Of a stretch of DNA of 64,000 nucleotides, positions 36,545 to 64,000 are shown piece by piece. Every line of letters begins with the position of its first letter. The first letter of the stretch is position 1. The notes below the pieces were generated by a model, which had not been told where the DNA came from, searched no databases, and saw only the letters and a program-made list of their open reading frames with translations. Both the position numbers and the translations under genes were made by a program. Source of the stretch: Alphaproteobacteria bacterium (GTDB lineage Bacteria; Pseudomonadota; Alphaproteobacteria; MPNO01; UBA830); assembly GCA_964291215.2 (NCBI GenBank), contig OZ219791.1, forward strand, positions 1,376,001 to 1,440,000. Direction: 5' to 3'.

Positions 36545-37063
36545 TCTAAGCATACAAAAAACGTAACTGTTCACCCCTTGGTTCCGGCTTGATGTCAGGG
36601 TAGAGCAACGAACGGGTTTTCATGGAGATTTGACACTGCAGGCCGATTCGTTTAGTGGTGGTCATCGAGAACGACGGGGGCCACCGATGGGCTACTTTGG
36701 ATCCAGGGCGACGAGCGGGCTGTGCCAGCTGCTTCCGGGGCTCCAGCCCCCGCATGGTCTGTATGTGGAAACGCATCCGGGAGGCGGCGCACTGATGAAG
36801 CGCAAGGCGCCGTGCTCTATCGGGATCGACCGGGAGCGCTGGACGGGTTCGGGTGCGACTATCCGGTGGAACTGATCCACGGCTGCGCCCACGCGTTCCT
36901 GGCCGGCTTTGCGTTCCGGGGCACGGAACTGGTCTGCAGCGACCCCTGCAGGCGACCCGCCGGTCGAAGCGGCGGTACCGCCACGACTACACCGAAGCCG
37001 ACCATGTCGAACTCCTTGAACTGCTCAAGGGTCTGCCGTGTTAGGCGATGGTCTCGGCCCCCC

Positions 37064-37256
37064 CACGGTGATCCCACGCTGCTAATCCGACGACGACTGG
37101 CGAGTTTTTTTCAGTTTGCGTCGCGCTGCAATCGTGCCGCCAAGGCTTGATGGGGCCTTTTTGGCACGAAAATTGCGATCAAGGAGGCGATCTGTGATGA
37201 GCCGAGCCCCAACGCATTCGGATTTCGCGTCTCCAAATTAGCATGGGATCGTCGTG
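37064..37256 (+). mobile_element. 193-bp MITE, copy 1
   Basis: TIRs CACGGTGATCCCACGCTGCTAAT / ATTAGCATGGGATCGTCGTG; near-identical inverted copy at 42351-42543; flanked by C-runs. Confidence 0.9.
37162..37176 (+). promoter_or_regulatory. Sigma54 -24/-12 consensus inside MITE
   Basis: TGGCACG-AAAA-TTGC followed by AAGGAGG RBS and GTG/ATG; conserved in copy 2 (42431-42445, minus). Confidence 0.6.
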
Positions 37257-37395
37257 CCCCCCCGCTCGGCGTTGTACGACGACCTGCTGCGGGACTGGCA
37301 CCGCATTGCCATGCAGGTGACGACCCGGGTCCGCACCGAGGTGGTGTGGCTCGACTTCGAGCCCGGGCGGATGCACTCGGCCAGCGATGCCGGGC

Positions 37396-37800
37396 GGCCG
37401 CAGCTGGAGGGGTGGGCGGACGAATGGATCGATCGCGGAGATTTGCCGCCTGAACACGGCTCGACTGCCTTGCTTCCGGCGGCGTTCGAGGCTGCGCAGG
37501 CGGCGCTGGAGATTGCGGTCGCCGCGCTGTTTGCGGAAGCGCCGAGGCTTCCGAAAGCGGCGCCGGAAGGCAGGCCGCTGCGCTCAACCATCGCGTGTTC
37601 GTCGACCATGGACAACAATTTCGGGGAAAGGGCCCCCCGGGGGCCCGGCCAACGGGCGGAAGCCCGGCTTCGGTTCCGACAGCATGGACGGCTGTCGGCG
37701 GTCATGTACACGGCCGCGAGGAGCGGCCTCGACGTTCTGCGCTGGCGCTTGCGCGGAGAACGGCGGCCCGGCGATCTGTCGCCCCGGTTGCCGTGAGCCC
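37396..37800 (+). pseudogene. IS66 transposase TnpC C-terminal remnant
   Basis: EGRPLRS, MDNNFGERAPRGP, GRKPGFGSDS, AVMYT, GLDVLRW, DLSPRLP. Confidence 0.75.
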
Positions 37801-37879
37801 GGAGAGGCGGCGGAGATTCGCAGCGCCGCCGTGAGGTCGAGGGCGCGACTTCATGATCGCGCAGTGCTGCGACGATCAC

Positions 37880-38254
37880 GGAGCGGACCCCATCGCCCGC
37901 GCCTTCTGCCGCCGCCAGCCCCGAAGCTGATCACGTCGGACACCGCCGCCCCGAAGACCCTCGACGAGCTCCGCCCGCTGACACTGCCTCGGATACACGC
38001 GCCTGGCAGCGCCGCAGATGCGCTACGCGCGGTCCATGACCGGAACGGCGAGCCGCTGCTTCTCGACCGCGGCATGGAGCGCGCGCTGCAACACCACGCC
38101 CGTGTCCTGCGAGACCTTGTCCCGCGCCGCGGCGGCGTCTGCCGGCCGCGTCGGAACAACTAGGGGGTGCGGCCGTTACGACCGACATGACAGAAGCCGA
38201 AGAAGGACATCTGGCCCGTTCCGCAAGGACTGGAAGCGGACCCTCAATCGCTGA
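37880..38254 (+). pseudogene. DUF4338 (DruA-like) protein remnant
   Basis: TLDELRPL, QMRYAVHDRNG, FSTAAW, NTTPVSCET, VGTTRGCGRYDRH, KDIW, RKDWKRTLNR*. Confidence 0.65.
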
Positions 38255-38465
38255 ACCCTGCAACCGGCACGGGATGGCGCTCAGCTTCTCCTCCGCAGCG
38301 CCGGGACAAAGCCGCAACCAATGCGGAAAACACGGCATGGCGCCAGTGCCCCTCACCGCGCATCCCGGTGCACGAAACCGCTCCGGGTGACGCTGGAACT
38401 CCCTGACAAAAGCCCGTCAAACGGACGAAAACAACAACACCTCACCGCACGAACGAACGCTTACG

Positions 38466-38994
38466 GTGGGTGCAGTTCTCGTATGGCGCATCCAAGTCAT
38501 TGATTTAACGCGGTTGTGCGGTCGCGAGGCAGCGGCGAAAACGGGTTTTCGTGACAATCGCCCGTTTCGGGACAGGATTTTGTCACGACCCCCGCGGCAT
38601 CGACAGGTGATCCGGGCGCTGCGCCACCTTCGCGACACCGCGGCGCCAACGGGCCGACATCGACAGGGAACTGTCCTTCTTCCGCAAGCATCGCCACCGC
38701 ATGCGCTACCACGCGCTGAAGCAACCGGCTCGGGAATTGTCGAGGCGGCAAACAAGACCCCCGTCACACAGCGCATGAGGCGCTCCGGCATGCGCTGGCG
38801 CATCGTCGGCGGACAATCACCTTCCGCGCCCTGCTCGAATCCGGCCGCTTCGAGAGCGCGTGGACGGCCATAATCGGTGCAGACGACGCACCAGCCAACG
38901 ACAACATCAGCCCAAATCACACCCCGGCACTGGCCGCATGAGATGAACAAATGGTACCGAGCCTGCAACCGTGCCATACGAAACTCTCACCCAC
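38466..38994 (+). mobile_element. Internally deleted ISKra4 family element
   Basis: Imperfect TIRs GTGGGTGCAGTTCTCGTATGGCGC / GTGCCATACGAAACTCTCACCCAC; encloses FFRKHRHRMRY and GSGIVEAANKTPVTQRMRRSGMRW. Confidence 0.8.
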
Positions 38995-39099
38995 GAGGCC
39001 GGAGAACGTCAGGCCGAAACCCTGCGCACAAGGCTGAAGGTCCCCCCCTCACGTCACGCTCCACAGACGCCGACCGCCAAAATCCCGCCGTTCTGAATC

Positions 39100-40048
39100 G
39101 CCGCCGACAACGCGATCCGACGGCACGGGATCAGCGAGGTCACCTTCTACAGGTGGCGCAAGAAGTATGCCGGGATGAGCGGCGATCAGCTTCGCCGTCT
39201 GAAGGATATCGAGAAGGAGAACGAGCGGCTGCGCCGTGCGGTTCCGGACCTGACGCTGGACAAGCAGGTCCTCAAGGGTGAGCGCATGCACGTCATTGGT
39301 TCGAGTGCATGCGCGAACGCGCGGGGGAACTTCTAGGCCCCTCGCGCTGCCGCCAGTGCATCGACCATGTCTGCGACCGGCTCGGGGTCTCGGAGCGCCG
39401 GGCCTGCCGGGTATTTGGGCAGCACCGCTCGACCCGGCACCGCATCCCCTGCGGTCGTGACGACGAGGACCGCCGGTCGGCGCCATGATCGAGCTGGCCC
39501 GCCAGTATGGCGGTTACGTTATCGACGGATCGCGGCCTTGCTTCGCGATGCCGGCTAGCAGGTCAACGACAAACGGGGCGAGCGCCTGTGGCGGCGCGAG
39601 GGGCTGAAGAGGTGCGCGGGAGATAACAGAAGCGGGGCCGTCCGTGGCTGAACGACGGCTCCTGTATCCGGCTGCGCGCCGAGCGGGCGGACCACGTCCG
39701 GTCCTGTGACATGGTCCATCACTGGACATATGACGGCTGGGCCTTGCGCATGCTCAACGTCCTGGACGAGTTCACCCGTGAAAGCCTGGCGATCCGGGTT
39801 CGGCGTAAGCTCTCCTCGATCGACATCATCGACGTGCTGACCGATCCGTTCATCCTGCGCCGAGCCCCTGGCCACATCCGCTCCGACAACGGACCGGAGT
39901 TCGTCGCTGGGGCGGTCAGGCCGTGGATCGCTGCAGTCGGCGCCCGTACCGCCGTCATCGAGCCGGGCTTACCCCGGGAGAACAGCTACATCGAAAGCTA
40001 CAACGCCCGGCTCCGCGATGAGCTCCTCGACGGGAAGATCTTCTACAG
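39100..40048 (+). mobile_element. IS3 family transposase pseudogene (OrfA/OrfB)
   Basis: GISEVTFYRWRKKYAGM..ENERLRRAV.DLTLDK; LNVLDEFTRESLAI, IRSDNGPEFVA, ENSYIESYNARLRDELL. Confidence 0.9.
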
Positions 40049-40247
40049 GGGGATTATAGTGAATAGTCCCAATCCGCCCGCTCAGCGCCACCGCCCGATT
40101 TGTCGCAACGCTTCCTCGGCCTTGGCGATCGCGGCCCGGCCAACTCTCATGTAATCTGACGGAACCGCCCTGCCTGACGGCCTGCCGTCAGCGAATTCGC
40201 TGGATCGAACGGTGCCGAACCGACCCCTTCCGACGCGGGCGACGACC

Positions 40248-40847
40248 CTACCCTTCGGCGGCGCGCGCCTCCCTGACGCTGTCGCGAAGGCAAAACCGCT
40301 CGTAGTAGGCCGCCACGTTGGGAAGCTGGCCGAGATCGAACTTGGCGGGCCGGGACCAGTTGAGAATCGCGCCGCAATAGACGTCGGCGACGGTAAAATC
40401 CTCACCCATGAGCCAGTCCCTGCCCTCCAGCGAGGCGTCGAGGAAGCCAAGTCTCACCTCAAGCCGGGCTCTCGCGATGGGCCTCATCTCGTCCGGAATG
40501 TAGGGAAGAAACAGCGGCGGGAAACCTTTGTGCAGCTCGCCGGCGACGAAGCTCAGCCATTCCTGCACCCGGTAGCGCTCCTCCGTGCCGCCAGCGGGCA
40601 GCAACCCGGTGTCAGGCGCCTGATCACCGATCCACTGGAGGATCACCGCGCATTCGGAAAGCTGCCCGCCATCGTCGCGTTCCAGAAACGGCACATATCC
40701 GCGCGGGTTGACGGCGAGGTAGTCGCTGCCGTCCGCGAGTTTCTTGTCCTGCAGACTCACAGACACGAGATCGAAATCCATCCCGGCTTCCCTCAGGCCG
40801 ACATGTGGCGCGAACGAGCACGTGCCCTTTGCGTAGTACAGCTTCAT
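40248..40847 (-). CDS. gstA: Glutathione S-transferase (beta class, GstA-like)
   Basis: MKLYYAKGTCS.APH, VNPRGYVP, ELHKGF, FTVADVY; GGAG RBS. Confidence 0.92.
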   Translation of the reverse strand: MKLYYAKGTCSFAPHVGLREAGMDFDLVSVSLQDKKLADGSDYLAVNPRGYVPFLERDDGGQLSECAVILQWIGDQAPDTGLLPAGGTEERYRVQEWLSFVAGELHKGFPPLFLPYIPDEMRPIARARLEVRLGFLDASLEGRDWLMGEDFTVADVYCGAILNWSRPAKFDLGQLPNVAAYYERFCLRDSVREARAAEG

Positions 40848-40888
40848 GACATCTCCTTCCGGTGAGTGGGAAAACGTGTGCAGGTCCG

Positions 40889-41841
40889 TCAGCCTGCGGC
40901 CGAGAACCTGTCACGGTCATGGTCGCGGGCAAGATCGACGAGTGGGCCGCGCGGGACGACGCCATTGGTGCCGGCCGGCCGGCTGGAAGATCTGGCGCTT
41001 CATGGAGGCGACGTCACTCACGCTGTCGATTCCCCGGGTCTGATACAGGTCGCGCAAATATTTTGAGAGGTGGTGATAATCCTCAAGATGGCGCAGGTTG
41101 CACTTATAATCGGCATAGTAGATCGGATCGAAGCGGATCAGGTTCGGATAGAAACGCCAGTCGGCCTCGGTCTGGGATCCGCCGCACATATACCGCTGGC
41201 CGGACAGCAGTTCGTCGAGCGTCCCGAACAGCAGGTCCACGGACTTCTCATAGGCGTCCTGGGTGGTCGAATGGCCGCATCCATTGATGGCGTCGTTAAT
41301 TCCCCTGAGCACCTTCCCGTTCATGGCGTCGATCTCGTCCCGGAGCACCGCCGGACAGTAGTTCAGCGTCGGCTCGGCAATGCCCGCGAATTCGGAGTTG
41401 AACATGCGGATGATCTCGGAGAACTCGTTGCTCACGATGCTGTTCGTCACGGTATCCCACAGCATCGGCACCGTGACCCGTGTCGTGCAGCCCGGTTCGC
41501 CCAACGCATAGACCTCGTGAAGATAGTTCACCTGCCTGCCGCTGCCGGGAACCGTGTGCGGGCCGTCAACGAAACCCCAGCCCTGCCTGTCGGGCGACTG
41601 CTCAGTATCAACCAGGCCGATCAGGCCGTCAAGCTTCTTCAGGACACGGAATATCTCGGTCCGGTGCGCCCACGGACAGGCGACCGACGAATAGAGCACG
41701 TAGCGCCTCGACGGGATAACCTGAGGATCCGTCGTCGGTGATTCGGTTCCGGGACTGCGACGGCCTCTTGACATAGAGCCCGGCCGCGTCTTCGCCGAGC
41801 ACATCGTCATGCGTCCACGCGCCGTCCAGCAGGTGTCCCAT
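40889..41841 (-). pseudogene. Glutathionyl-hydroquinone reductase (omega-like GST, YqjG family), frameshifted
   Basis: MGHLLDGAW in one frame; ACPWAHRT, RVTVPMLWD, IVSNE.SEIIRMFN, TEADWR..LIRFD, YLRDLYQ in another; GVVPRGP end in a third. Confidence 0.85.
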
Positions 41842-41943
41842 GGGCCGCACTCCAACCAGTCTTCAAATTCCGACGCGGGATGTATGCACGGTCGGCACCC
41901 GGCCAGTCCAACGATCAGGGACGACAAGGCAGTGATGCCGCTG

Positions 41944-43076
41944 TCAGGAAATCCCTGGCGCGGGAAACGCGCAGATCTTCCGCGCGACCTCGGAAACCAC
42001 GTTCCTTACCCATTTGTACGCAGGCGACCAGTGCGTTCGTGTTGTCCAGAACTGAAAAATGGCGACTTCGGTGTCGAACGGGCTCTCGCGGACGCGTAGA
42101 TCGCCGCCAACCCCGGACGCGAGACGCGACAGGATGGTCAGAACCAGGCCGGAACCTTCGACAATCCCGACAAGATCGACGGAGTTCGGCATCTCGACCG
42201 CAATATCGAGCGCTATTCCCTTGGCGGCCAAACTGTCCATGTAGAGCGGACGCCACCCGCCCTCGCGGGTGAGTGCCGCGTGCCGACAGTTCCTGTAGCG
42301 GTCAAGCGTGATCGCCCCTCGCGCCAGGGGGTGGTCGGCATCCACGATGCCACGACGATCCCATGCTAATTTGGAGACGCGAAATCCGAATGCGTTGGGG
42401 CTCGGCTCATCACAGATCGCCTCCTTGATCGCAATTTTCGTGCCAAGAAGGTCCCATCAAGCCTTGGCGGCACGATTGCAGCGCGACGCAAACTGAGAAA
42501 ATCTCGCCAATCGTCGTCGGATTAGCAGCGTGGGATCGCCGTGTCCACGATGCAGACGAACCTGTCTACCAGGAGCTTCTGCCGGTAGAGTCTCTCCGAC
42601 TCCGCCCGTCTCGGTGACAGCAGGATGTCGCATTCGCCGCCGCCCAGCTAGCGATGCCCCTGCAACAGCGACTGGACAATGCTGAGCCTGATGCCTGGCG
42701 CATCGCGCCGGATGACATGGGAGACCAGCACCGAACGCTCGTAGTGGTTGCAGGAGATCCTGATCGTTTCGGACGAGGTCGCCGGATCGAATGCGGCAGC
42801 GTGAAACAGCCCTTCTATGTGCTCGAGTATGTCGCCCGACGTATCGACGATCTGCCGGCAACGCACTGTCGGCTCAACTCCGCGGCCGGATCGCACGAAG
42901 AGCGGATCGTTGAAGGTCTCGCGCAGGCGGTTGAGCGTGTAGCTGATTGAGGACTGGTTCTGTCCAAGCTCGGCAGCCACGGCCGAGACCGATCCGCGGT
43001 CGTGAACCTGCTTGAGAATCGGGAGTGATCGGAAGTCGAGGCGCGAGTTATCGAAATTCGTTATGAAAGATATTTG
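41944..43076 (-). pseudogene. LysR family regulator interrupted by MITE and IS66 element
   Basis: HTH SVSAVAAELGQNQSSISYTLNRLRETFNDPLFVRSGRGVEPT; substrate-domain fragments (HWSPAYKWVRN); internal stop. Confidence 0.88.
42351..42543 (-). mobile_element. 193-bp MITE, copy 2, with 10-bp TSD
   Basis: TCCACGATGC duplicated at 42341-42350 and 42544-42553; TIRs as copy 1. Confidence 0.93.
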
Positions 43077-44574
43077 GTATCTACTCACCCCTAGTTGGGT
43101 TCTGATTGGTCGTAGTGCTCGTTGATGATATCTGCGGCTTTTCCGTCGAGGGCGATCTGGGTGGCGACGTGATGATTGTAGCCGAGTGCGGCCATGGAGG
43201 TGAGGTAGCTTGAGCCCCGGCACCATGCTTTTGCGTGGAGCGGAAGCATCCGGACACCTTGACCTTTGCCATCCTGATCTTCTGTTCTCCGGCATTGTTG
43301 GTGAAGCTGACGTTGGGGTCGTCTGTGAAGCGCAGGTTTTCGTGTTCCACGAGACGTTCGTGCAGGTTGTGCGCGTTTGCGATGCGTTTTCCTTTCGTCG
43401 GGATGTCGGGCAGTTCCCTGGCGCCCTGATGGTGCGGTAGCGCTTGCGCACGGCGTCGTTCAGGGTTTTGGATGCGCTCTTGTTGACCTTGTGGCAGACC
43501 TCGCGGAGCAGGCTCTTCATCAGTCGCGCCCAGCGGTAGCCTCGACGACAAAGGTCAGTTCGCGCAGCAGGTGGCTACCGCACAGCTGGTGGCTACACTG
43601 GCCCATGTACGAGGCCCAGGACGCCCTTGTAGCACGGGCCGATCTCTTGCCCGCGCTTGCGGTGCGGGAACTTGCACGTCAGGGTCCCACGACATGGAGC
43701 CACTTACTGTTGATCCGAAATCGTCGACATCGGGCGTTGCAGGAGGTGCGCCACGGCGGCCTCCTCCCATGACGCATCGTGAAAGCATAGCCGAGGCCTC
43801 GGAGAGCTTGATGCCGGAGATCGCCTGCACGAGCGCGACAGCACGGCGCAGGGACAGCATTTGGGCGACCAGCAGGTTGATGACGAGGGCCTGGATGCCG
43901 ATGCCGTACTGCACGGGATGTTGTCGGGGAACCGGCCCTTGGTTCGAGCCTTGCACTTCGGGCATTCCTCGGCGTCGACGCGGCGCTCGACGACCTCGAA
44001 CACGATGTCATGCGGCGCTCCCGATCGACGGGGCCGTCGATGTCAGCGCCGCAGGCGTCGCAGGCCGCGACCGTTTCCTCGACGATGGCAGGTTGTCGCC
44101 CATCTACCGGTTCGGCTTCGGGCCCTTGCCGTTGCTTCCGGCACGCTCTTGTCCGTCTGTGACGGCGGCAGACCGGAGTTCCGGCTCGTGCGTGGTCTTC
44201 TCCAGAAGGACGACGATGAGGATGTCGAGCAGGATGACGAAGACGCGGATCACGGCCTCTTCCGCCACCTTGCCGGCAGCGCCTTGGCCGCTTCGAACCC
44301 CTCGCGCGCCGCCCGTCGCCATCACCCGGCCTTGCGCTTCATCAGCGCGCCGCCTCCGAGATGCGTTTCCACATACAGATCATGCGGAGGCTGGAGCCCC
44401 GGAAGCAGCTGGCACAGCCCGCTCGTCGCCTTCGATCCAAAGTAGCCCACTGGCGGTCCCCGTCGTTCTCGATTACCACCACTAAACGAATCGGCCTGCA
44501 ATGTCAAATCTCCACGAAAACCCGTTCGTTACTCTACCCCGACATCAAGCCGGAACCAGAGGGTGAGCAGTTAC
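43077..44574 (-). mobile_element. Degenerate IS66 (ISBst12-like) element with MTase 5' fragment, 8-bp TSD
   Basis: Ends GTAACTGCTCACCC / GTATCTACTCACCCC; GATATTTG duplicated at 43069-43076 and 44575-44582; transposase motifs HLLRELTF, FTNNAGEQKIRMAKVK.SGCFRS. Confidence 0.93.
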
Positions 44575-44651
44575 GATATTTGAAACATCGGATTGTCGAA
44601 TGCAATGGCCTGCCATACCGTGGCGCACCGAAAGAGCACAGGGAGGTTTCA

Positions 44652-45170
44652 ATGGATGAGTTCGCTGCAACCGATCGGAAGGCCCGGGTCTCGGGACCGC
44701 CTCGTTTCGACGGTATCGATCATGTCAGCTTTCCGTGCCGCGACCTCGAAGAGGGGATCCGGTTCTACCGGCACGTCCTCGGCGGCCGCCTGCTCGTGCA
44801 GGAGGACGCTTTCGCGATGTTCGATGTCTGCGGCGCGCATATCGGAATCGGATCGGTGGGCTGCACCTTCATTGAACCGGGCAACGAGTATCCCCACATG
44901 GGATTTACGTGTAGCGCCAAGGCGCTCCTCGCGATGAAGGACTGGCTCACCGCATGCGGCATCCCGACAACCGATCTATGGACGCGCCAGGGCGTCGAAG
45001 CGCTCATGTTCTTCCGCGATCCGTCGGGAAACGTCATCGAGCTTTTCTGCCACGAAGGCTACGAGGACCCGTCAAGCCTGTCGCGGGGTCCGGCGCGCGG
45101 TCACGGGACGACGGTCGACATTGACGCCATCACCTATTCGGAGTGGCGGCTCCCCGCCGGTTTCGAATAG
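44652..45170 (+). CDS. VOC/glyoxalase family protein
   Basis: GIDHVSF..RDLE..IRFY..VLG, HMGF, FFRDPSGNVIEL; GGAGG RBS. Confidence 0.88.
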   Translation: MDEFAATDRKARVSGPPRFDGIDHVSFPCRDLEEGIRFYRHVLGGRLLVQEDAFAMFDVCGAHIGIGSVGCTFIEPGNEYPHMGFTCSAKALLAMKDWLTACGIPTTDLWTRQGVEALMFFRDPSGNVIELFCHEGYEDPSSLSRGPARGHGTTVDIDAITYSEWRLPAGFE

Positions 45171-45187
45171 GCGCAAGCACCCTGGCA

Positions 45188-46186
45188 ATGCTCATCCAGA
45201 AGGCGGGAGTGATGTTCCACGATCCGAGCCGGTCGACGCCCGGCTACACGCTCTTCTCCCGCACGCAGAGCAGCGACGTCTACCTTGTCGACCTCGACGG
45301 GCGTGTGGTCAGGCAATGGGAAACCGGCGGCGGTTCGACCCATTTCTCCTGTCTGCTTGCCAATGGAAACCTCTGGGTCTGCGAGCGCGTCGAAGACGCA
45401 CCCCCGATCATGGCCGGTCCGGGCGGCCGGATGCGCGAATATGACTGGGAGAGCAACGTCGTCTGAGAACATGTCGACCGGATGCAGCATCACGACGCAC
45501 GGCGGCTGGAGAACGGCGGCGCAGCCTACATCGCCTGGGAGCGCCCGGACGGCATGCTCGGCGAGGCGGTCCGGGAGGTCGTCGCGGACGGGAACCTCGT
45601 CTGGGAGTGGCGGATCACCGACCTCGACATCAAGCGGTACCCGCTGCACCGAAACGCGTCGCGGGCGATCTACGGGCACTGCAACACGCTCGACATGCTC
45701 CCCGCCGGCGACTATCTTCTGAGCTTCAAGACCCTCAACCTGCTGATCATTCTCGACCGCGGGACCGGCAATGTCAGATGGGCGTTCCAGAACGACGATC
45801 TCGGCGGCCAGCACGACGCCCAGATGATCGGCAACGGAAACATGCTGGTGTTCGCCAACGGCGTCTACTCGCAGGACCTCCACTTCTCTTCTGTCTGGGA
45901 GATTGAGCCCGCAAGCTGCGAAGTGGTCTGGCGCTACCGGGCCAAGCGCAACGCCTGTTCGTTCTACAGCCCCCATATCAGCGGCTGCCAGCGCCTGTCC
46001 GGTGGCAACACGCTGATCTGCGAGGGTGCAAAGGGAACCATCTTTGAGGTTGCCCCTGACTGTGACGTGGTGTGGGAGTATGTCTGCCCCTACTGGGGCG
46101 CACACCCCAATCTCGGCGAAGTCAATTCCATATTCCGTGCACGCAGATATGCCGCGGATTCCCCGGAAATCCGGAACCGGGTCTGA
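45188..46186 (+). pseudogene. Aryl-sulfate sulfotransferase (ASST-like beta-propeller) with in-frame TGA
   Basis: TPGYTLF, EYDWESNVV*EH (TGA 45464-66 at a W position), QHHDARRLENG, HCNT, GQHDAQ, FYSPHISGCQRL.GGNTLICEG. Confidence 0.8.
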
Positions 46187-46327
46187 CTTCGCCGCCGCTG
46201 GCCGATCCCGCCAGCGGAGATCGAGACCTCGATCGCTTCCACTCCCGCGGCAGCTCCCGGCTGCAGCGTCCTGTTGGCCGTGGCGGAGTGCGCGGATATG
46301 ATGATTCGCCACCACAGGAGGCAGCAA

Positions 46328-47188: not shown

Positions 47189-47266
47189 CCGCCGCCGGGG
47201 CAGGCGACCCGAAATCTTGCGATACCGGACCGAAGTGCCCGGCAGTCGGCGCGAGGTGAGTGCGCG

Positions 47267-47638
47267 ATGCTCGAAAACCTCCCCAATCTCGTGAATGCCG
47301 ACCGGAACCTGGTTCGCCTCGGGCGCCACCTGAACGCAACCTTCCTGTTCGCGGCCGGCAGAGAGGAATGGCTGATCCCGGTTGAGCGCGGCATGATCGG
47401 AACCGTCAGGGAAGGCTTCGGCCCCATGAACTCGTGGCGATTCGCGATCCGCGTCGACAGCGCTGCCTGGGAGCGGTTCCGGGCGCCGATCCCGCAGCCG
47501 GGTTATCACGACATCTTCGCTATGACCAAGGCCGGCGAAGCCGTCGTCGAGGGAGACCTCCAGCCCTTCATGGCCAACCTGCGCTACGTCAAGGAAGTTC
47601 TCGACAAGGCCCGGGCATGTGGCGGAAACCGGATATGA
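47267..47638 (+). CDS. Hypothetical protein (possible SCP2-like fold), coupled to alpha/beta hydrolase
   Basis: GAGG RBS; AWERF..P.P.PGYHDIFAM, VEGDLQPFMANLRYVKEVL; ATGA overlap with next gene. Confidence 0.7.
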   Translation: MLENLPNLVNADRNLVRLGRHLNATFLFAAGREEWLIPVERGMIGTVREGFGPMNSWRFAIRVDSAAWERFRAPIPQPGYHDIFAMTKAGEAVVEGDLQPFMANLRYVKEVLDKARACGGNRI

Positions 47639-48594: not shown

Positions 48595-49704
<1,110 letters not shown>

Positions 49705-53906: not shown

Positions 53907-53943
53907 TCGGGCGTCCTCGGGGCGCCTGCTCGGCGTCGCGGCG

Positions 53944-55089: not shown

Positions 55090-55164
55090 GTCGTTCCCAT
55101 TGCCGTTTCCGCAACGTTCCGGTCAGATGGCAAGGAAGCGCGCAGCACCGGACGGCAGGCCCGT

Positions 55165-56394
55165 CTATCCCCAGGGCCCCAGGAACTGCTCGCCGGTGAA
55201 GCTGTCGGAAAGCGGTTCGAGGGTTTCAGGCCAAGCGCCGTTGTCCGTCCGGCGGCGCTGGTCCGCAGGCCGGGGGCGGCCGTCCCAGCCGATCTGCTCC
55301 ATGTAGTAGTAGAGTTCGACGACATGACCGTCGGGGTCGATGGCGAAGGCCGAGTAGTCGATTCCCGTCGAGAGCGCGGGCGGAAGGTAGCGGATCTCCA
55401 CGCCGTTGCGTTCGAGAAAGGCTATCGCGTCCCGAAGCTGGGCGTAATCGTTGACCCGCACCCCGAACGACATGCACGAGGACCAGTCGGTCAGTCCGAG
55501 TTCCTCCCTGAGTTCCATCGGATACAGTGCAAGCGCGTGATGCTCGGTGCCGCAGCGCAGGAAATGGCACTCCCTGCCCTGCCAGACGACGGTCTCCGTC
55601 AGGGTCAGGCCGAGCCGGTCGCGATAAAACGCCAGCGCATTTCCGGGTCGTTCCGTGAACAGCCGCACCGGGCCGATGCCGGTAATCTTGAACGGGCGCG
55701 GCAGCCGGATGCCGCCGACGTCATATTCCGCGGTGCCGAGTTCGAGGGAGTTGGTGCCGGAACCAAGATCGACCTGCCGCTTGCGCGCATTCTCGACCTC
55801 TTCGGCCTCGCGTATCCAGGGCAGTTCGGGGGCCGTGGTGAATTCCCGGTCGAAGAGCTCGCGCGGTTTCGACAACCCGTCCCATCCGACCTGCTCGATA
55901 CCGTAGAAGAGTTCGTTTATGTGTCCGTCGGGATCGATGGGATAGACGTGCCAGTTGGATCCGGGGACGTCGCGTCCGGTACGGTGGTAGTCCACGCCGG
56001 TCTCGCCGAACCAGTCGGTCGCGTTGCGGACTTCCCGCGGGCTCCCGACCTGCCAGGTGATCTGGTTTATGGTAACATCGTCGGCCATGCGTTTGTCGTA
56101 ATCGATGGCCTTGCGCACCCGGTAGGGAAACAGCACGAAGGCATGGTGATCGGTGCCGTAACGCATGAAATATCCGTGCGTGTCGCCGAGGCCTTCGAGT
56201 TCCGCCGGATCGCGGGCGCGGGCGCCAATGTCGAGCGTATCGGTGACCTGGAATCCGAGGAGGTCGCGGTAGAAGCTGAGGGATTTCTCCATGTCGCGTC
56301 CGTAGAACCCGAAATGCCCCAGCCGGCGCAGCCGGAACGGCCGCTCCAGCGTCAGGCCGCCAACATCGAACCTTTTATTTGTGGACTCCACCAT
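55165..56394 (-). CDS. Two-domain VOC family protein (extradiol dioxygenase-like)
   Basis: RRLGHFG, FYRDLLGFQVTD, GTDHHAF, YPIDPDGHINELFY; duplicated domain GTEHHAL..DPDGHVVELYY. Confidence 0.85.
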   Translation of the reverse strand: MVESTNKRFDVGGLTLERPFRLRRLGHFGFYGRDMEKSLSFYRDLLGFQVTDTLDIGARARDPAELEGLGDTHGYFMRYGTDHHAFVLFPYRVRKAIDYDKRMADDVTINQITWQVGSPREVRNATDWFGETGVDYHRTGRDVPGSNWHVYPIDPDGHINELFYGIEQVGWDGLSKPRELFDREFTTAPELPWIREAEEVENARKRQVDLGSGTNSLELGTAEYDVGGIRLPRPFKITGIGPVRLFTERPGNALAFYRDRLGLTLTETVVWQGRECHFLRCGTEHHALALYPMELREELGLTDWSSCMSFGVRVNDYAQLRDAIAFLERNGVEIRYLPPALSTGIDYSAFAIDPDGHVVELYYYMEQIGWDGRPRPADQRRRTDNGAWPETLEPLSDSFTGEQFLGPWG

Positions 56395-56646
56395 GGGTGT
56401 TATCTCCCGTTCAACGTGAACACTATACGGAACGCGCCGTTTTGCCGCTAGCGGCCAGGTCCCGCCCGGAGCGACAGCCAAGGCCGAGCCTGAAGCGCAG
56501 ATTGCCGGAATGACGGGCGGGATTAACTCCGACACTCTCACAGTCGTCAATGGCGACACTGCCGCAGCGCTGCGCGCGCATCTGCAAGCCTCCACAGACT
56601 ATTGCCGTTGCCGGTCCGACTGACCGCGCCCGGTAGGGAGATACCC

Positions 56647-57533
56647 ATGGAATACCCTCTCACCTTCATGTCCGACGGCCTCAAGCTGGCCGGCATCCTC
56701 CACGTGCCGGAAGGACGCGAACCCGGGCAGCGTCTGCCGACCTTCATCGTCCTGCACGGCTTCGTCGGAACCAAGGACAAGTCCCATGTCGAACTCGTCG
56801 CGCGAATGCTCGACGAGATGGGCTACTGCGTCTTCCGCATCGATTTTTGCGGTTGCGGCGAGAGCGAAGGCGCGCGCGGCGAGGTCCGCTGCTTCGACCA
56901 GGTGGTCGACACCAAGAACGCCCTGACCTTCATCGCCGGACGCGAAGAGGTGGATCCCGACCGGATCGGAGTTATCGGGCACAGCTTCGGTGCGGCGGTG
57001 GCGATCTTCGCCGTCGTGATCGACGAGCGTATCGCCGTCGTGATCTCGCTTTGCGGCTGGGGCCACGGCGAACGCAAGTTCCGAGGCCAACATCCGACGC
57101 CCGAAGCCTGGCAGAAGTTCACCGGCATCCTGGAGGACGGGCGGAAGCAGAAAGCCGAGACCGGAGAGAGCATGTGGGTTTCGCGTTTCGATGTGGTGCC
57201 GATTCCCCAGAACTGCGCTCGAATCTCTCGCCAAAGGCGCAGTTCGAAGTGCCGGTGGAAACCGCGATCAGCATGTACAAGTTCCGCGCCGAAGATGTCG
57301 TGGCCGACATAGCGCCGCGACCGCTCCTCCTGTTCCACACCGCGGACGATGTGGTCACGCCGACGGAGCAGTCGATCCGCCTGTTCGAGAAGGCAGGTGC
57401 CAACGCCGAACTGATGATCCCCACCGGCGTCGCGCATTTCCCGCTGTCAGAGGAGGATGCGCCCTATACGCGCGCTCTGATCGGCGCCTGGCTCAACAAG
57501 TTCTTCCCGACCCCGCTGCGCGCACACGCATGA
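56647..57533 (+). pseudogene. Alpha/beta hydrolase (S9/S15-like), frameshift near 57210
   Basis: LHGF, GCGESEG, DPDRIGVIGHSFG in one frame; IAPRPLLL.H..D.V, AHFP in another. Confidence 0.82.
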
Positions 57534-57582
57534 AGACCATCCCTGCACGCAACCTGCACGAGTTTGCAATTGAACTCCTGAC
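57530..57582 (+). pseudogene. N-terminus of probable Ldh_2 (malate/lactate/ureidoglycolate dehydrogenase) gene, split by IS66 element and truncated
   Basis: MKTIPARNLHEFAIELLT continues after the TSD at 59110 as AGGFAPNFAEDTA; ATGA-coupled to upstream hydrolase. Confidence 0.45.
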
Positions 57583-59109
57583 GTAACTGCTCACCCCCTG
57601 GTTCCGGCTTGATGTCGGGGTAGAGCAACGAACGGGTTTTCGTGGAGATTTGACACTGCAGGCCGATTCGTTTAGTGGTGGTAATCGAGAACGACGGGGA
57701 CCGCCAGTGGGCTACTTTGGATCGAAGGCGACGAGCGGGCTGTGCCAGCTGCTTCCGGGGCTCCAGCCCCCGCATGATCTGTATGTGGAAACGCATCTCG
57801 GAGGCGGCGCGCTGATGAAGCGCAAGGCCGGGTGATGGCGACGGGCGGCGCGCGAGGAGTTCGAAGCGGCCAAGACCGCGGCGCTGCCGGCAAGGTGGCG
57901 GAAGAGGCCGTGATCCGCGTCTTCGTCATCCTGTTCGACATCCTCATCGTCGTCCTTCTGGAGAAGACCACGCAAGAGCCGGAACTCCGGTCTGCCGCCG
58001 TCACAGACGGACAAGAGCGTGCCGGGAGCAACGGCCCGAAGCCGAACCGGCAGATGGGCGACAACCTGTGCAAGACCATCGTCGAAGAGACGGTCGCGGC
58101 CTGCGACGCCTGCGGCGCCGACGGCCCCGTCGATTGGGAGCGCTGCATCCTCTACGACATCGTGTTCGAGGTCGTCGAGCGCCGCGCCGAGATCAAGGAA
58201 TGCCCGAAGTGCAAGGGCCGGTTCCCCGACAACATCCCGTGCAGTACGGCATCGGCATTCAGGCCCTCGTCATCAACCTACTGGTCGCCCAGATGCTATC
58301 CCTGCGCCGTGCCGTCGCGTTCGTGCAGGCGATCTCCGGCATCAAGCTCTCCGAGGCAACCTGCCTCGGCTATGCTTTCACGATGCGTCATGGGAGGAGG
58401 CCGCCGTGGCGCACCTCCTGCAACGCCCGATGTCGACGATTTCGGATCAACAGTAAGTGGCTCCATGTCGTGGGACCCTGACGTGCAAGTTCCCGCACCG
58501 CAAGCGCGGGCAAGAGATCGGCATCATCCCGTGCTACAAGGGCGTCCTGACTGCTGGACCTCGTACATGGGCTATGACCAGTGTAGCCACCAGCTGTGCG
58601 GCAGCCACCTGCTGCGCGAACTGACCTTTGTCGTCGAGGCTACCGCGCGACTGATGAAGAGCCTGCTCCGCGAGGTCTGCCACAAGATCAACAAGAGCGC
58701 ATCCAAAACCCTGAACGACGCCGGGCGCAAGCGCTACCGCACCATCAGGGCGCCAGGGAACTGCCCGACATCCCGCCGCCGCCGAAAGGAAAACGTGGAC
58801 GCAAGTCCGACGCGCACAACCTGCACGAACGTCTCGTGAAACACGAAAACCTGCGCTTCACAGACGACCCCGACGTCAGCTTCACCAACAATGCCGGAGA
58901 ACAGAAAATCAGGATGGCAAAGGTCAAGGTGTCCGGATGCTTCCGCTCCACGCAAAAGCATGGTGCCGGGGCTCAAGCTACCTCACCTCCATGGCCGCAC
59001 TCGGCTACAACCCACTCGTCGCCACCCAGATCGCCCTCGACGGAAAAGCCGCAGACATCATCAACGAGCACTATGGCCAATCAGAACCCAACTAGGGGTG
59101 AGTAGATAC
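57583..59109 (+). mobile_element. Degenerate IS66 (ISBst12-like) element with MTase 5' fragment, 8-bp TSD
   Basis: GTAACTGCTCACCCC...GGGGTGAGTAGATAC; CTCCTGAC duplicated at 57575-57582 and 59110-59117; NSGLPPSQT, CPKC, QLCGSHLLREL, FTNNAGEQKIRM. Confidence 0.95.
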
Positions 59110-59217
59110 CTCCTGACTGCGGGAGGGTTCGCGCCGAACTTTGCCGAAGACACCGCGGCAACAGCGAATTTCATCGATCTGTCCCGCGAACAACCATCGC
59201 GAGCAAGCCGGCATCGG

Positions 59218-60472
59218 CTACCAGCAACCGCCTTTACGCGTCAAAGATGTCCGCTTGTAATCGCGCTCGGCGTCAGCATCCACAAGGATATTGCAAACGA
59301 TGACGGTGCCATCGGCAACCCCCATCAACGCCAGCCTGCCGTTCGGCGAGAAGGCGACGGCGCGCGGCGCGGCATCGTAGCGCCACTTCCGCACGGTCTG
59401 TCCGGTTGCCGCGTCGTGAAACTCGACCTCCCAGCGGTCGTCTCCCGTCAACGCCCATCGGCCGTCCGACGACAGGGCGACCGACGTCACGCGGGCGCCA
59501 ACTTGCCATTGTCCCAATACCTGTCCGGATCGGATTCGCGCAGCACGGCCTGCCAGTTTGCCGCTCCCGTGAGAACCCGCCGGCCGTCCGCGGAGAACAC
59601 GGCTGACATGAGACCCCCGGCTTCCGAGCCGGGATGATTCCATTCGTGCCGTGTCTTCCCGGTTCCAGCCTCGCCCAGCACCGCCTTGCCGTCGGCGAAG
59701 CCCGCGAGGGTCCACCGCCCTTCATGCGACCAGGCGACGGATGTCACCGGAGCTTGCGCCGCCACTTGCGGAGAATATCGAGCGTGCCCACATCGATCAG
59801 GAGGGCGACGTGTCCGGCCCCTACCAGAGCCTTGCGCCGGTCGCGTGACCGGGCGACGCCAACCATCTTGTAATCGTGCTCCCGACGATTGCCTAGGATC
59901 CGTCCTGTCTCAATGGCGCGCAGCGACGCCAGACCGCGCCGCCCCGCCATCAGGACGCGCTCCTCGCGCGGTGAAGAGGCCCCGGCCCGGTCGTCGCCGG
60001 ACCCGTGTCACCACGTCCGCACGAGGTCCCCACCCGATATCGCCCACAGCTCCGACACCGTTGTCGTCCACTGCCAATACGTGATGTCCGCTGTGCTTCA
60101 ACGCAATCGCGATGATGCAGGCGCCGTGCCGCGAGAACCTCATCGGTGCGCTGTCCGACATCGGGCGCAACGCACGATGCCGGCTCGCCCGGTCCATTGC
60201 CTTGCGCACCGCCGGAAGGGAGCGGGTACTGATCCTCTAGCCGGTTTTCAGTTTCACCGCGCGGTCGGCAGACGGGCACGCTCCACGATTTCAACGAGGT
60301 TGTCGTGCGCCTTTTTCAGGAGTCCGAATTTCTCTTCCGGTGACGGCTCAAGCTCGGCATCCCGGATGTACCCGACTGCCTCGATCAACAGACGGTTGGC
60401 CCAAGCCGTGTCATCTGCCCAAACCGGCGACACCGCCAAGCACAATATGCAGGCAAGAAAAAAGCGCTTCAC
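59218..60472 (-). pseudogene. Secreted WD40-repeat protein, multiply frameshifted
   Basis: Signal-like VKRFFLACILCLAVSPVWA; repeats VTSVAWSHEGRWTLAG, SAVFSADGRRVLTG, VTSVALSSDGRWALTG, AVAFSPNGRLALMG in different frames. Confidence 0.75.
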
Positions 60473-60543
60473 AGCATCGTGTCCCGGTGCATGGTGCAAG
60501 GGCTTGACACCGGTCGCGGTATCCGGCGAGAAGGGCGGGGTGC

Positions 60544-60750
60544 TCAGGCTGCAGCATCGGACAGCCTGATCGTCCGATTATCGGTCATGGAAGCGATCGG
60601 TTCCAACGTCATGCGCCGCCTTTCGACGACCTACTCGTCGTTCTGCTCAAGGAGGATGGCCCCGACAAGGTGGATAATGGTCTCTTCGTTGGGGAAGATA
60701 CCGACGGCGCTGGTGCGTCGGTTGATCTCGGCGTGGAGATGTTCGGCAGC
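60544..60750 (-). mobile_element. IS256 family transposase C-terminal remnant
   Basis: EHLHAEINRRTSAVGIFPNEETIIHLVGAILLEQNDE*. Confidence 0.8.
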
Positions 60751-60975
60751 TGATGTCTACGATATGACCGGCCTCGCGGCATGGTCTTTCGGCGATCCTG
60801 GCCGCCACCCAAACGGCGCCTGCCCGCCGGGCGAGGCCGACCCCTTTCAGGTAATTCTTGTAGCAGGCGCAACTCCGGCGCGGCGTCTGACCGGGGTCGA
60901 TCGTCTGCCTCTTTCGATTGCCGCGCTGGCCGGTCCCTGCCAGCTTCCGGAAACCGGGCGACAGGTTGGACGCTG

Positions 60976-62613
60976 TCAGACATCCTCGTCCGGCTGCAAC
61001 GGAGCCGTGCCGAGAATGTGATCGCTCACCTTCTCGGCAATCAGCAGAACCGCCGCGTTGATGTTTCCGGAAACCAGGTCGGGCATTGACGACGCGTCCA
61101 CCACCCGAAGGTTCTCTGCCCCGCGAACCCGGCATTCCGGATCGAGCACCGCACGCTCGCCGGTGCCCATCGGGGTCGTGCAGGAGGGGTGATGCGCGGT
61201 GACCACCGTGCGCCGTATCCACGCGCCGATCTCGTCATCCGTCTTCACGTCCGCGCCGGGGGTGGTCTCGGTTCCCCGGAACGAATCGAGCGCCGGCTGG
61301 TGCAGCAGTTCGCGCGCAATCCTGACGCCGTTGCGCAGGGTGACGAGATCTTCCGGCGCGGCGAGGAAGTTCTGGATGATGCGCACCTTGTCCATCGGGT
61401 TCGCCGACCTCAGCAGCACCTCGCCCCGGCTCTCCGGGTGCAACAGTACCGGCCGCAACCCGAAACCGTCCTCGTATGGCGGCCTGATGCCCGGGAACCA
61501 CAGATGGGCATCCGGCGGAGCGCCGCGGAACAGGAACTGGATGTCCGTCACCGCAAGCTCCGGGCATGTCTTGACGAAGCCGTGAAGCCCGCCGGGAAGG
61601 ACTGTGGCCGGCCCGGTTCCGAAGAGATGCCCCCGCACCATCGACACCGCCATGCGATCGAAGCGCATGACGCTCCGGAACGGCCCGGGAGCGGGGCGGG
61701 TGGCCATCGGCATCACGGCCAGATGGTCCTGCAGGTTCTTGCCCACGTAGGGGGAATCGATCACCATATCGATGTCGACCTCAGACAGGTGGTCGGCTGG
61801 ACCGATCCCCGAGAGCATCAGGAGCTGCGGGGAGTTGAAAACGCCTCCCGACAAGATGACTTCCCGCGCCGCATGGGCCGTCCGGGTCTCGTTGCCGCGA
61901 ACGAATTCGACGCCGGTGGCTCGCCTGCCGTCCATGATCACGCGGGTCGCGTGCGCGTTCGTCAGCACCGTGACGTTGGGGCGCTTCATCGCCGGCCTCA
62001 GGAAGGCGCGGGCCGCACTGTTGCGTTTGCCCTGGTGGATCGTCGACTGGCTGCGGCCGAGGCCTTCCTGCTTCTTCCCGTTGTAGTCATGGGTAAAGCC
62101 GATGCCGGTGGTCTCGCCGGCCTCTATCCATGCATCCCATAGCGGATCAGTGGAGCGCGCCCGCGTGGTATGGAGCGGACCGTCACCGCCACGCCACTTG
62201 TCGGCACCCTCCTCCCAGCTTTCCATGCGCCGGAAGTACGGCAGCACGTCGGCATAGGACCATCCGATAGCGCCCTTCTGCGCCCAGCGGTCATAGTCGC
62301 CACGGTGGCCGCGCACGTAGGCCATCACGTTAATCGAGGACGAACCGCCAAGCACCTTGCCGCGCATCGCCTCGACGACGCGATTGTCGATATGGGCTTC
62401 CGGTTCGGTGTCCAGACCCCAGTCGTGCGCCCTCTTGTCGTGCATCCGCCCCATGCCGAGAGGAATGTGGATCAGCGGATCGGTATCGGGGCCGCCAGCT
62501 TCCAGGACCAGCACGCGGACATCGCGCTCGGCGCTCAGCCGGTATGCCAGAACGCAGCCGGCGCTCCCTGCGCCGACGACGATATAGTCGTACTCGTTCC
62601 GCTCGCCCGTCAT
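60976..62613 (-). CDS. GMC family oxidoreductase (choline dehydrogenase-like)
   Basis: YDYIVVGAGSAGC, RGKVLGGSSSIN, GKNLQDH, HHPSCT..MG, LRVVDASSMP.LVSGNINA. Confidence 0.93.
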   Translation of the reverse strand: MTGERNEYDYIVVGAGSAGCVLAYRLSAERDVRVLVLEAGGPDTDPLIHIPLGMGRMHDKRAHDWGLDTEPEAHIDNRVVEAMRGKVLGGSSSINVMAYVRGHRGDYDRWAQKGAIGWSYADVLPYFRRMESWEEGADKWRGGDGPLHTTRARSTDPLWDAWIEAGETTGIGFTHDYNGKKQEGLGRSQSTIHQGKRNSAARAFLRPAMKRPNVTVLTNAHATRVIMDGRRATGVEFVRGNETRTAHAAREVILSGGVFNSPQLLMLSGIGPADHLSEVDIDMVIDSPYVGKNLQDHLAVMPMATRPAPGPFRSVMRFDRMAVSMVRGHLFGTGPATVLPGGLHGFVKTCPELAVTDIQFLFRGAPPDAHLWFPGIRPPYEDGFGLRPVLLHPESRGEVLLRSANPMDKVRIIQNFLAAPEDLVTLRNGVRIARELLHQPALDSFRGTETTPGADVKTDDEIGAWIRRTVVTAHHPSCTTPMGTGERAVLDPECRVRGAENLRVVDASSMPDLVSGNINAAVLLIAEKVSDHILGTAPLQPDEDV

Positions 62614-62908
62614 GTTGCGGTTTCCTCCATGCGCCGGTGTTCTCCGGCCATCAGTTTCTGCGAGCCGTCGGCACGAATCCCGATCAGGACCACCCGAGCC
62701 AGCCCGTAGCACCCTGTCCCGACCCGTTACACCAGCAGCGGCAAAAGATTGGGATCACGGTAAGACAAGCGGCAGGGAGCCGCGCTGTTCCGGTTATAGA
62801 TTCGACACCGGCCGGGAAAGTAACTGCGGCGCCGGAGAAGACCGGCGGAGACCCGGTCGCGCCATCCGGGGCCCAAGACCCCGGCGTACCGAGACTTCCG
62901 CTGTGGTC

Positions 62909-62985
62909 TGGTAGCGGGGGAGGGACTCGAACCCCCGACACGCGGATTATGATTCCGCTGCTCTAACCAGCTGAGCTACCCCGCC
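62909..62985 (-). tRNA. tRNA-Met (CAT), elongator type
   Basis: GGCGGGGTAGCTCAGCTGGTTAGAGCAGCGGAATCATAATCCGCGTGTCGGGGGTTCGAGTCCCTCCCCCGCTACCA: cloverleaf, CAT anticodon, encoded CCA, no C1-A72 initiator mismatch. Confidence 0.95.
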
Positions 62986-63158
62986 AAACGCGACCGGTAT
63001 ATGAACGATGGAACCACCCCCGTCAAGCCTGTCAGCGCCGCCAGCGTAATCGGCCGTGGCAGGAACGATCACGCAAGGATCGGCTGGCACAGAACATGGT
63101 GCGGCAGGCCTGTAGCGGGTACAAACACCCGGGAACGAAATCGCATCGGAGAGCGGTC

Positions 63159-63905
63159 ATGGCTAGAAACAGAGAGGCGCTGAGCCTTGCGGTGCTGATC
63201 GACGCCGACAACACGAGCGCACGCTATGCGCAGGCGATCTTCGAGGAGATCGTCAAGCTCGGCGAAGCCGATGTGCGCCGAATATACGGGGACTTCTCGG
63301 GTACTCAGCTCGGCAACTGGGACAAGGCCATCCAGTCGCTTGCGATCCTTCAGCACCAGCAGCGGAGCAACTCCAAGGGCAAGAACGCGGCGGACATCGC
63401 GCTGGTCATCGACGCGATGGACCTGCTCTACAAGAACAATCTCGACGGCGTGTGCCTGGTCTCGAGCGACAGCGATTTCACGCGCCTCGCGCAACGGCTC
63501 CGCGAGGAAGGCCTCACGGTCTACGGCTTCGGCGAACGTAAGACGCCAGAGGCGTTCCGCAACGCCTGCAGCAGGTTCATATATCTCGAGAACCTTCTGG
63601 ATTCCGGCACCGAGAAGGAGAACGGCACGACTGCCTCTGCAAAGGCGGAAAAGAAGGAATCGCCATCAAAGGCGGTGAAGCTCATCGCGAAGGCGATCGA
63701 GGATGCGGACGAGGACGGTTGGGCGAACCTTGGCAGCGTCGGCACCCGGCTCCTCGCCGCGGCGCCGGACTTCGATTCCAGAACCTATGGCTGTTCCAAC
63801 CTGAGCACGCTGGTCGAGAAGTCCGGCGGGTTCGAAATCCGCAGGGAACCCGACAAGGACGTGCATATCCGCCGCAAGGTGGTCAAGCGCAGGGCTAGGA
63901 AGTAG
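63159..63905 (+). CDS. NYN (LabA/DUF88) domain RNase with C-terminal OST-HTH/LOTUS domain
   Basis: AVLIDADN, RRIYGD, GKNAADIALVIDAMD, VSSDSDF, ACSRFIYLE; C-term GWANLGSVG..PDFDSRTYG..LSTL. Confidence 0.92.
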   Translation: MARNREALSLAVLIDADNTSARYAQAIFEEIVKLGEADVRRIYGDFSGTQLGNWDKAIQSLAILQHQQRSNSKGKNAADIALVIDAMDLLYKNNLDGVCLVSSDSDFTRLAQRLREEGLTVYGFGERKTPEAFRNACSRFIYLENLLDSGTEKENGTTASAKAEKKESPSKAVKLIAKAIEDADEDGWANLGSVGTRLLAAAPDFDSRTYGCSNLSTLVEKSGGFEIRREPDKDVHIRRKVVKRRARK

Positions 63906-63939
63906 TCCTCAGGCACCGAAGACAAGTAGAACCTGGGCG

Positions 63940-64000
63940 GTAACTGCTCACCCCCTGGTTCCGGCTTGATGTCGGGGTAGAGCAACGAACGGGTTTTCGT
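63940..64000 (+). mobile_element. Left end of a fourth copy of the IS66/MTase element (runs off window)
   Basis: GTAACTGCTCACCCCCTGGTTCCGGCTTGATGTCGGGGTAGAGCAACGAACGGGTTTTCGT matches 57583 onward. Confidence 0.93.

Follow-up and report, generated by a model that had tools for sequence, protein, structure and literature searches.

The stretch of DNA analysed here (the window: 64,000 nucleotides, G000:C2:1376001-1440000) contains dead copies of an IS66 insertion sequence (IS) with a single transposase. In intact relatives of this element the transposase is headed by a cassette of promoter, operator and a gene for a Upf31-family protein with a methyltransferase fold, and our comparative analysis suggests that this cassette probably serves as a negative-feedback switch on the transposase. 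The element family of the window is termed family A, and a second IS66 family carrying the same gene in this genome (G000) is termed family B. An initial annotation of the window had read the gene as a Dam-like methyltransferase and the element as an IS carrying its own epigenetic writer.

A Upf31-like protein with a methyltransferase fold

The structure model of the IS-borne protein (pLDDT 90.5; a first model with 18 sequences reached 57.5 and was set aside) shows an S-adenosylmethionine (SAM)-dependent fold, for which EcoDam is the nearest match (E 3.5e-7, TM 0.56). Relative to Dam, about 90 residues of the recognition domain are absent between the SAM and catalytic motifs (profile positions 63-84 align with DpnM 71-183) and a C-terminal helical pair is added. 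PF02086 scored 14.3 bits against a cut-off of 22, and no PF02086 match was obtained for P0048, one of the two open family-A proteins described below. Motif I and the DPPY motif are present in the IS-borne proteins and destroyed in the window copies.

Upf31 of plasmid pBP136 aligns with the IS-borne protein over its full length at 44% identity (E 2e-62 and 5e-63). In the consulted sections of the study on Upf31 (PMC11997246), no methylation was detected with DpnI/MboI (GATC) or by SMRT (single-molecule, real-time) sequencing, which used an expression vector and motif calling. The same sections report that Upf31 brings the activity of its own promoter down from 4.76 to 0.09 units, a repression of about fifty-fold, that repression is lost in Y180A, F185A or W198A variants, and that KorB is predicted to be bound via the same C-terminal domain. 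The equivalent of W198 was found in 89/89 close homologues. Outside family A, 67 of 73 IS-type homologues have the equivalent of F185 and 51 of 73 a tyrosine or phenylalanine at the Y180 position, while the corresponding counts in the family-A clade are 1/16 and 0/16. Judged by sequence and promoter the protein is a Upf31-family member, and judged by domain content it is not a Dam-class enzyme. The epigenetic writer of the initial annotation is not supported in the form proposed, as the protein has no Dam-type target-recognition domain and methylation was not found for its relative Upf31 in the sections cited.

Promoter, operator and proposed feedback

In intact elements a palindrome, CATAG-N10-CTATG, overlaps the TTGACA promoter of the methylase-like gene. 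The combined motif TTGACA-N-CATAG-N10-CTATGCTG was detected in 71 of the 72 metagenome loci (survey described below) with enough upstream sequence, and across these upstream regions mean palindromy was 6.5 of 8 at a spacer of 10 and at most 3.6 at other spacers. The 6.15-Mb genome contains 13 operator core sites, of which 12 are the promoters of the 12 family-B copies. In family A the TTGACA box is kept and the palindrome retains only 2/8. The Upf31 promoter, TTGA CAGCATCG N10 CGAGACTG, has the same layout as the IS-borne promoters.

By analogy to Upf31, the IS-borne protein would bind the palindrome, probably as a dimer held together by the C-terminal helices, and once bound would shut the promoter from which the coupled transposase is also transcribed. 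A copy arriving in a naive cell would give a transposase burst, and repression, acting in trans, would climb with copy number. Among the roles initially offered for the gene, self-regulation thus stays the likeliest, via operator binding, while anti-restriction and a change of the host methylome appear less likely.

Separately, clusters of CATAG-N10-CTATG-type repeats, similar to IncP-1beta clusters, were seen by eye upstream of the gene in four phage relatives (L181, L184, L192 and L211).

Intact elements in other genomes and metagenomes

Homologues of the methylase-like protein fall into 3691 clusters at E <=0.001. In a survey of genomes, restricted to the best 80 of 311 hits, many of which come from the same genomes and are not independent, an IS66 transposase lay downstream in 79/80 loci, terminal inverted repeats (TIRs) were found in 66 and target site duplications (TSDs) in 51. 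These loci belong to metagenome-assembled genomes of Alphaproteobacteria, Dehalococcoidia and Binatia, and the arrangement is not a single capture amplified only in this genome, a possibility that had been raised at the outset. In a separate scan of metagenomes with a profile of more distant homologues, 80 loci were obtained. A transposase match was present in 55 of the 67 loci with at least 600 nt of room, a lineage-A transposase started within 150 nt in 62/80, and TIRs and TSDs were detected in 39/80 and 8/80, respectively; at one locus (L177) the neighbour is clearly not a transposase. No IS66 transposase was found beside any of 80 phage loci or 7 plasmid/other loci, all of which are more distant (43-65% to the queries), and five annotated plasmid loci are lone genes.

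Intact elements measure 2.25-2.46 kb and consist of the left end, the TTGACA promoter with its palindrome, a methylase-fold gene of 219-222 codons, a transposase beginning at or just past the stop of this gene, the right end and an 8-bp TSD. The two genes fill the element, and tnpA and tnpB are absent. PF03050 and NF033517 score above cut-off in the intact relatives L108, L119 and L156 and in the family-B locus L001. An intact lineage-A relative of 2342 bp with a TSD occurs in the same genus (L326), and in a second intact relative, L292, the first 16 bases of the left end are identical to family A and the same TGATG is present. The ancestor proposed in the initial annotation, with left end, promoter, methyltransferase gene, transposase and right end in this order, accordingly exists intact in other genomes and in decayed full-length form in this one. 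Close relatives of family A were found in one of 23 genomes (L292), and a match was obtained in 3 of 401 genomes of the phylum, which makes the family patchy.

The methylase-like gene is clearly under purifying selection. Its median ratio of nonsynonymous to synonymous substitution rates (dN/dS) is 0.19 in lineage B (44/45 pairs) and 0.13 in lineage A (403/780 pairs), compared to 0.37 and 0.13 for the transposase; pairs outside dS 0.05-1.5 were dropped, as was L046, for which no transposase open reading frame (ORF) was picked.

Two side observations concern other settings of the gene. Non-IS relatives at L177, L091, L093 and L094 lie in front of a gene for an 8-oxoguanine glycosylase-like protein (Pfam tests cover L177 and L091), which at L091 is adjoined by QueC and PfkB genes; such loci possibly represent an operon for defence or base modification that is controlled by the same switch. 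The cassette at L179:1050-2645 precedes a 532-aa ORF for which nothing scored above cut-off in Pfam, NCBIfam or PHROGs, with flanking inverted (14-bp) and direct (28-bp) repeats; this is perhaps an unclassified mobile element.

Movement of the cassette between transposases

Gene trees were computed as quick trees with labels by transposase type that had been fixed beforehand, and the approximately unbiased (AU) test was run after the tree had been seen. The IS-borne genes form one group (SH-aLRT 96), within which those accompanying lineage-A transposases do not make up a single clade (AU test, p 8.5e-7). The family-A gene nests on a long branch among lineage-B genes, and the family-A transposase is ~52% like lineage A and ~29% like lineage B; tree position and identity together show a gene of lineage-B type on a lineage-A transposase. 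In genome G437 the cassette stands ahead of tnpC in a classical IS66 element of 3212 bp (L323:555-3766, approximate) in which the opposite strand carries tnpB and a tnpA-like gene; the element has 24 matches in that genome and an 8-bp TSD in 2/3 copies checked. An IS4-family element at L164:88-2415 encloses the same cassette; it has inverted repeats, and its 9-bp TSD lies in a palindromic target. Sequence comparison shows the cassette to be portable and to have moved among transposase lineages, into a classical three-gene IS66 and into an IS4 element. An IS1634 element at L102 was rejected as a further carrier, being a later insertion into an IS66 transposase start.

These findings bear on the idea that the protein might replace TnpA/TnpB as an accessory factor of transposition that works through protein contact or on the ends of the element. 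The tight coupling to the transposase, the position of the gene in the upstream slot of single-ORF elements and the KorB binding predicted for the C-terminal domain of Upf31 (PMC11997246, sections consulted) are in line with such a role. However, the cassette is carried on transposases only ~29% alike, on IS4 and on the classical IS66 element, in which tnpB and a tnpA-like gene are retained, and within element ends the operator core occurs only at the promoter, apart from one lone half-site in the family-A right end. We regard an accessory function as very unlikely.

Two IS66 families in one genome

Genome-wide, family A comprises 239 left and 184 right ends, which form 171 pairs within 6 kb. 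A perfect 8-bp TSD surrounds 106/171 paired copies, compared to 0-8 copies at every other length from 2 to 12, a pattern far beyond chance. Full-length copies contain the left end, 124 nt, the methylase-like gene, TGATG, the transposase and the right end, and are decayed. An open 219-aa gene with DPPY persists in two copies (C2:872935 and C2:986774; P0048 and P0051), both with truncated transposases; dN/dS between the two genes is 0.64.

The left ends fall into 22 long copies, two deleted classes of 56 and 117 members, 35 short and 9 other copies. The class of 56 arose by deletion between two 11-bp repeats (MKRKA and IKRKA codons) and that of 117 by deletion to an AGGC microhomology, so that the gene was removed in two successive microhomology deletions and is missing in 173/239 left ends; the spread of non-autonomous deletion derivatives that had been proposed initially is thus borne out. 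Median pairwise divergence is 8.3% for long copies, 3.3% for the 11-bp-repeat class and 2.9% for the AGGC class. As the deleted classes are less divergent than the long copies, most copying came after gene loss. No ORF in the genome spans the lineage-A transposase profile, which leaves no intact family-A transposase, and nearest neighbours among 111 short copies differ by a median of 1.75%; taken together, family A is dead or nearly so. Presumably the deleted forms were copied in trans by an intact helper now gone from the assembly and would have multiplied without adding repressor.

Two other interpretations of these copies were discarded. Selection of an in-frame deletion to keep gene and transposase coupled is unsupported, as long copies already share transposase frameshifts. 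The 3-kb copies are not full-length ancestors; the majority are 1.5-kb copies into which a group II intron has inserted at a single site. This degraded intron (Rfam RF02005; L327:2666-2844) lies antisense in the transposase remnant at element position 1287, the site holds an insert in 26/31 elements of 2.8-3.4 kb, and 56 long intron matches occur genome-wide. L328 (G000:C1:2027818-2030300) and similar copies are composites in which a second left end (its first 95 bp), in inverted orientation, closes the element; they have an 8-bp TSD, and an NYN-domain-like fragment was recognised by eye between transposase and end. The junction recurs in 9/35 short left ends. Repeats of G000 decay via many deletions of 5-9 nt at short direct repeats that are common to copies, which suggests a strong microhomology-mediated deletion bias in this genome.

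Family B, represented by a 2357-bp element at G000:C1:2496187-2498543 (L001:1002-3358) and 11 more copies, mostly >99% identical, has an intact operator and an intact 219-aa methylase-like gene, 75% identical to that of family A. Its transposase (NF033517, E 4.9e-76) differs from intact relatives by 10 small deletions, 4 of them frameshifting. For family B, an assembly artefact was rejected: the deletions are common to the copies and recur letter for letter in contigs of sequencing runs X2 and X3, of which X2 may be the source sample; the undeleted form is present in X4. Contigs of the RNA run X1 contain a related element, which by itself does not demonstrate expression.

The intact gene beside a broken transposase in family B would suit a cargo kept for host or anti-restriction benefit through broad methylation, with the element borrowing its promoter. 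Distant relatives that are lone genes on conjugative plasmids and phages, and matches of PADLOC type II methyltransferase models to the catalytic half, point in the same direction. Yet the gene keeps one position and one orientation, directly ahead of transposases unrelated to each other, the palindrome is conserved along with it, and precisely this gene was lost from most family-A left ends; in addition, the consulted sections on Upf31 (PMC11997246) report no genome-wide methylation. We therefore judge a cargo role to be quite unlikely.

Observations opposing negative feedback

The proposed feedback switch has to be weighed against several observations. The mechanism rests on a 44%-identical relative, from which binding, repression and expression of the IS-borne proteins are predicted. 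The family-A clade is without two of the repression residues, yet its proteins are full-length, common elsewhere and under selection; the family-A gene has a dN/dS of 0.32 against L292 and belongs to a cluster of 185 members. The family-A protein may thus have been rewired to a changed specificity instead of being disabled, or selection may act on a function other than repression. Elements with an intact cassette still reach 24-34 matches per genome. That the family-B gene was spared by deletions (1 of 11) does not reach significance (P 0.11). The comparison of 239 with 12 copies is confounded, as shorter elements may move better, and the genome is permissive to repeats (105 copies of a miniature inverted-repeat transposable element (MITE) and at least 56 of the intron). 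Escape of family A from feedback fits the order of events, which short length and a repeat-permissive host would explain equally well.

A last opposing point is DPP, which is invariant in 145/145 homologues and would fit retained catalysis. Along with the conserved motif I and acidic residue 50, Dam as the best fold match and adenines in both operator half-sites, it argues for a true N6-adenine methyltransferase that acts on a long and rare target. This target would most plausibly be the operator of the gene itself, whose methylation state (perhaps hemimethylation after replication) would set the promoter as an element-encoded epigenetic switch. The motif-level SMRT analysis in the consulted sections on Upf31 (PMC11997246) might overlook a site with only a few occurrences. 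Against this stand the negative methylation assays reported there, the absent Dam-type recognition domain and the replacement of the motif III aspartate by cysteine in 87/89 close homologues; moreover, single changes of C-terminal aromatic residues abolish repression by Upf31 in the same source, for which binding alone is a sufficient explanation. An operator-specific methyltransferase is in our opinion unlikely, albeit worth serious consideration. Somewhat more doubtful still is a broader scenario, in which unrelated IS families would have adopted a copy-number governor whose methyltransferase fold both binds and methylates its own operator, and in which the window family would represent an escape: operator and residues erode, the gene is deleted, and copies rise about twentyfold over the sister family.

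Element copies in the window

As initially annotated, the window contains four left ends, at 36563(+), 44574(-), 57583(+) and 63940(+), and right ends at 43077 and 59109, and the methylase-like gene starts 124 nt into the element (~125 nt had been given). The left end reads GTAACTGCTCACCCC and the right end GTATCTACTCACCCC, an imperfect match; the TIRs start with GTAA, a trait of IS66, and intact relatives have GTAACT at both ends. The right end does not finish in TTAC, the terminus given for IS66 elements in the initial annotation, but in ...GTAGATAC. All window copies are inactive relics.

The copy with most of the methylase-like gene (left TIR 36563..36576, + strand) was initially thought to keep nearly the whole methyltransferase. 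It carries a promoter/operator remnant at 36630..36658 (+; TTGACA-17 nt-TAGTGG, palindrome degenerate, 2/8) and a Upf31-like pseudogene at 36687..37397 (+) that covers codons 1 to ~179 of 219; its identity to the open-frame copy at G000:C2:872935 is 90%. Two frameshifting deletions, a 7-nt deletion through DPPY near 36944 and a TAG at 37042-37044 disrupt the gene, and the pseudogene is split by a MITE-like repeat of ~195 bp (37062..37257, +), which recurs near 42350-42540 and in 105 near-full copies genome-wide. The copy has neither transposase nor right end and is cut off by a different repeated element at 37398..38464 (-), whose end, GTAAGCG, we take to be a classical IS66-type end.

Two complete non-autonomous deletion derivatives were confirmed with their TIRs and perfect 8-bp TSDs. 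The first (43077..44574, -; 1498 bp) is flanked by GATATTTG at 43069-76 / 44575-82 and retains a methylase ORF residue (44450-44322) and a broken transposase. The second (57583..59109, +; 1527 bp) is flanked by CTCCTGAC at 57575-82 / 59110-17. Its promoter/operator remnant (57650..57678, +) lies where intact relatives have the conserved TTGACA-N-CATAG-N10-CTATGCTG; of the candidate promoter placed here, the TTGACA box holds, whereas TAGTGG as -10 box does not (consensus scan, 0 sites). A 42-codon residue of the gene follows (57707..57835, +), in which the gene start is fused in frame to its own last codons at the AGGC microhomology and the stop overlaps the transposase ATG (TGATG). The shared deletion described initially is real, but the single-ORF transposase it was said to join is only a lineage-A remnant (57835..59060, +, end approximate), frameshifted and with many deletions. 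In the 1.5-kb window copies PF03050 gives E 2.9e-4, below cut-off, and identity to the intact locus L156 is ~50%. The fourth left end (63940..64000, +) runs for 167 nt, including sequence beyond the window, and is then cut by another element.

Other features of the window include a decayed element with rve integrase domains at 39100-40050, probably IS3-like by its domains, an intact gene with NYN and OST-HTH/LOTUS domains at 63096-63905, directly left of the fourth left end, and near this gene a tRNA-like sequence recognised by eye (~62910-62985).

Comparison with known systems

Element-encoded brakes on transposition include InsA of IS1, TnpR of Tn3, Inh of IS50 and the Dam control of IS10, by which transposase is kept low with a burst in the naive cell. 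These brakes use helix-turn-helix repressors, truncated transposases or the host Dam, and a methylase-fold protein encoded on the element differs from all three. The Dam/D12 N6-adenine methyltransferases (EcoDam, DpnM) share the SAM fold, motif I and DPPY with the IS-borne protein and are its best sequence and fold matches in the PDB; the latter differs by the missing recognition domain of ~90 residues, the extra C-terminal helical pair and scores below Pfam and NCBIfam cut-offs.

Our literature search yielded no description of this cassette in an IS and no paper on transposase regulation in single-transposase IS66 elements. A promoter-operator-gene cassette portable across transposase families would constitute a general control module. 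For the Upf31 family, with its thousands of 'DNA adenine methylase' annotations, it would mean a function outside IncP-1 plasmids, and it would be a case in which a methyltransferase fold has been turned to use as a transcription factor. New from this genome is a family in decay and gene loss beside one with an intact cassette.

That IS66 elements normally encode only transposition genes, as first assumed, holds with a restriction: in the part of the TnCentral article consulted (10.1101/2021.05.26.445724), passenger-bearing IS66 elements are already recognised among the transporter IS (tIS) of the IS1595 and IS66 families. As in tIS, IS ends and a transposase here enclose a further gene; tIS passengers are cargo, whereas this gene is fixed ahead of the transposase, supplies the promoter and is likely regulatory. 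The ISBst12 group of IS66, for instance ISDge4 (PMC12898284, as far as consulted), likewise has a single DDE transposase, an 8-bp TSD and imperfect TIRs, and the 11 bases with which the window's left end begins are identical to the start of ISDge4, GTAACTGCTCA. It differs from the present elements, which have an additional conserved gene and operator upstream and measure 2.25-2.46 kb when intact and 1.5 kb as window derivatives.

The closest known system is Upf31 (upf31.0) of the IncP-1beta plasmids pBP136 and R751 (Elg et al., 2025; PMC11997246, in the sections consulted). Both proteins have the same motif order and C-terminal helices, an inverted repeat overlaps the -35 box in both promoters, W198 is conserved, and Y180 and F185 have counterparts in most IS-borne homologues. 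The right half-site of the Upf31 promoter differs, and family A of the window is without the Y180 and F185 equivalents. Upf31 is encoded by a stand-alone plasmid gene and has KorB as a predicted partner, whereas the IS-borne gene heads a transposase operon within IS ends.

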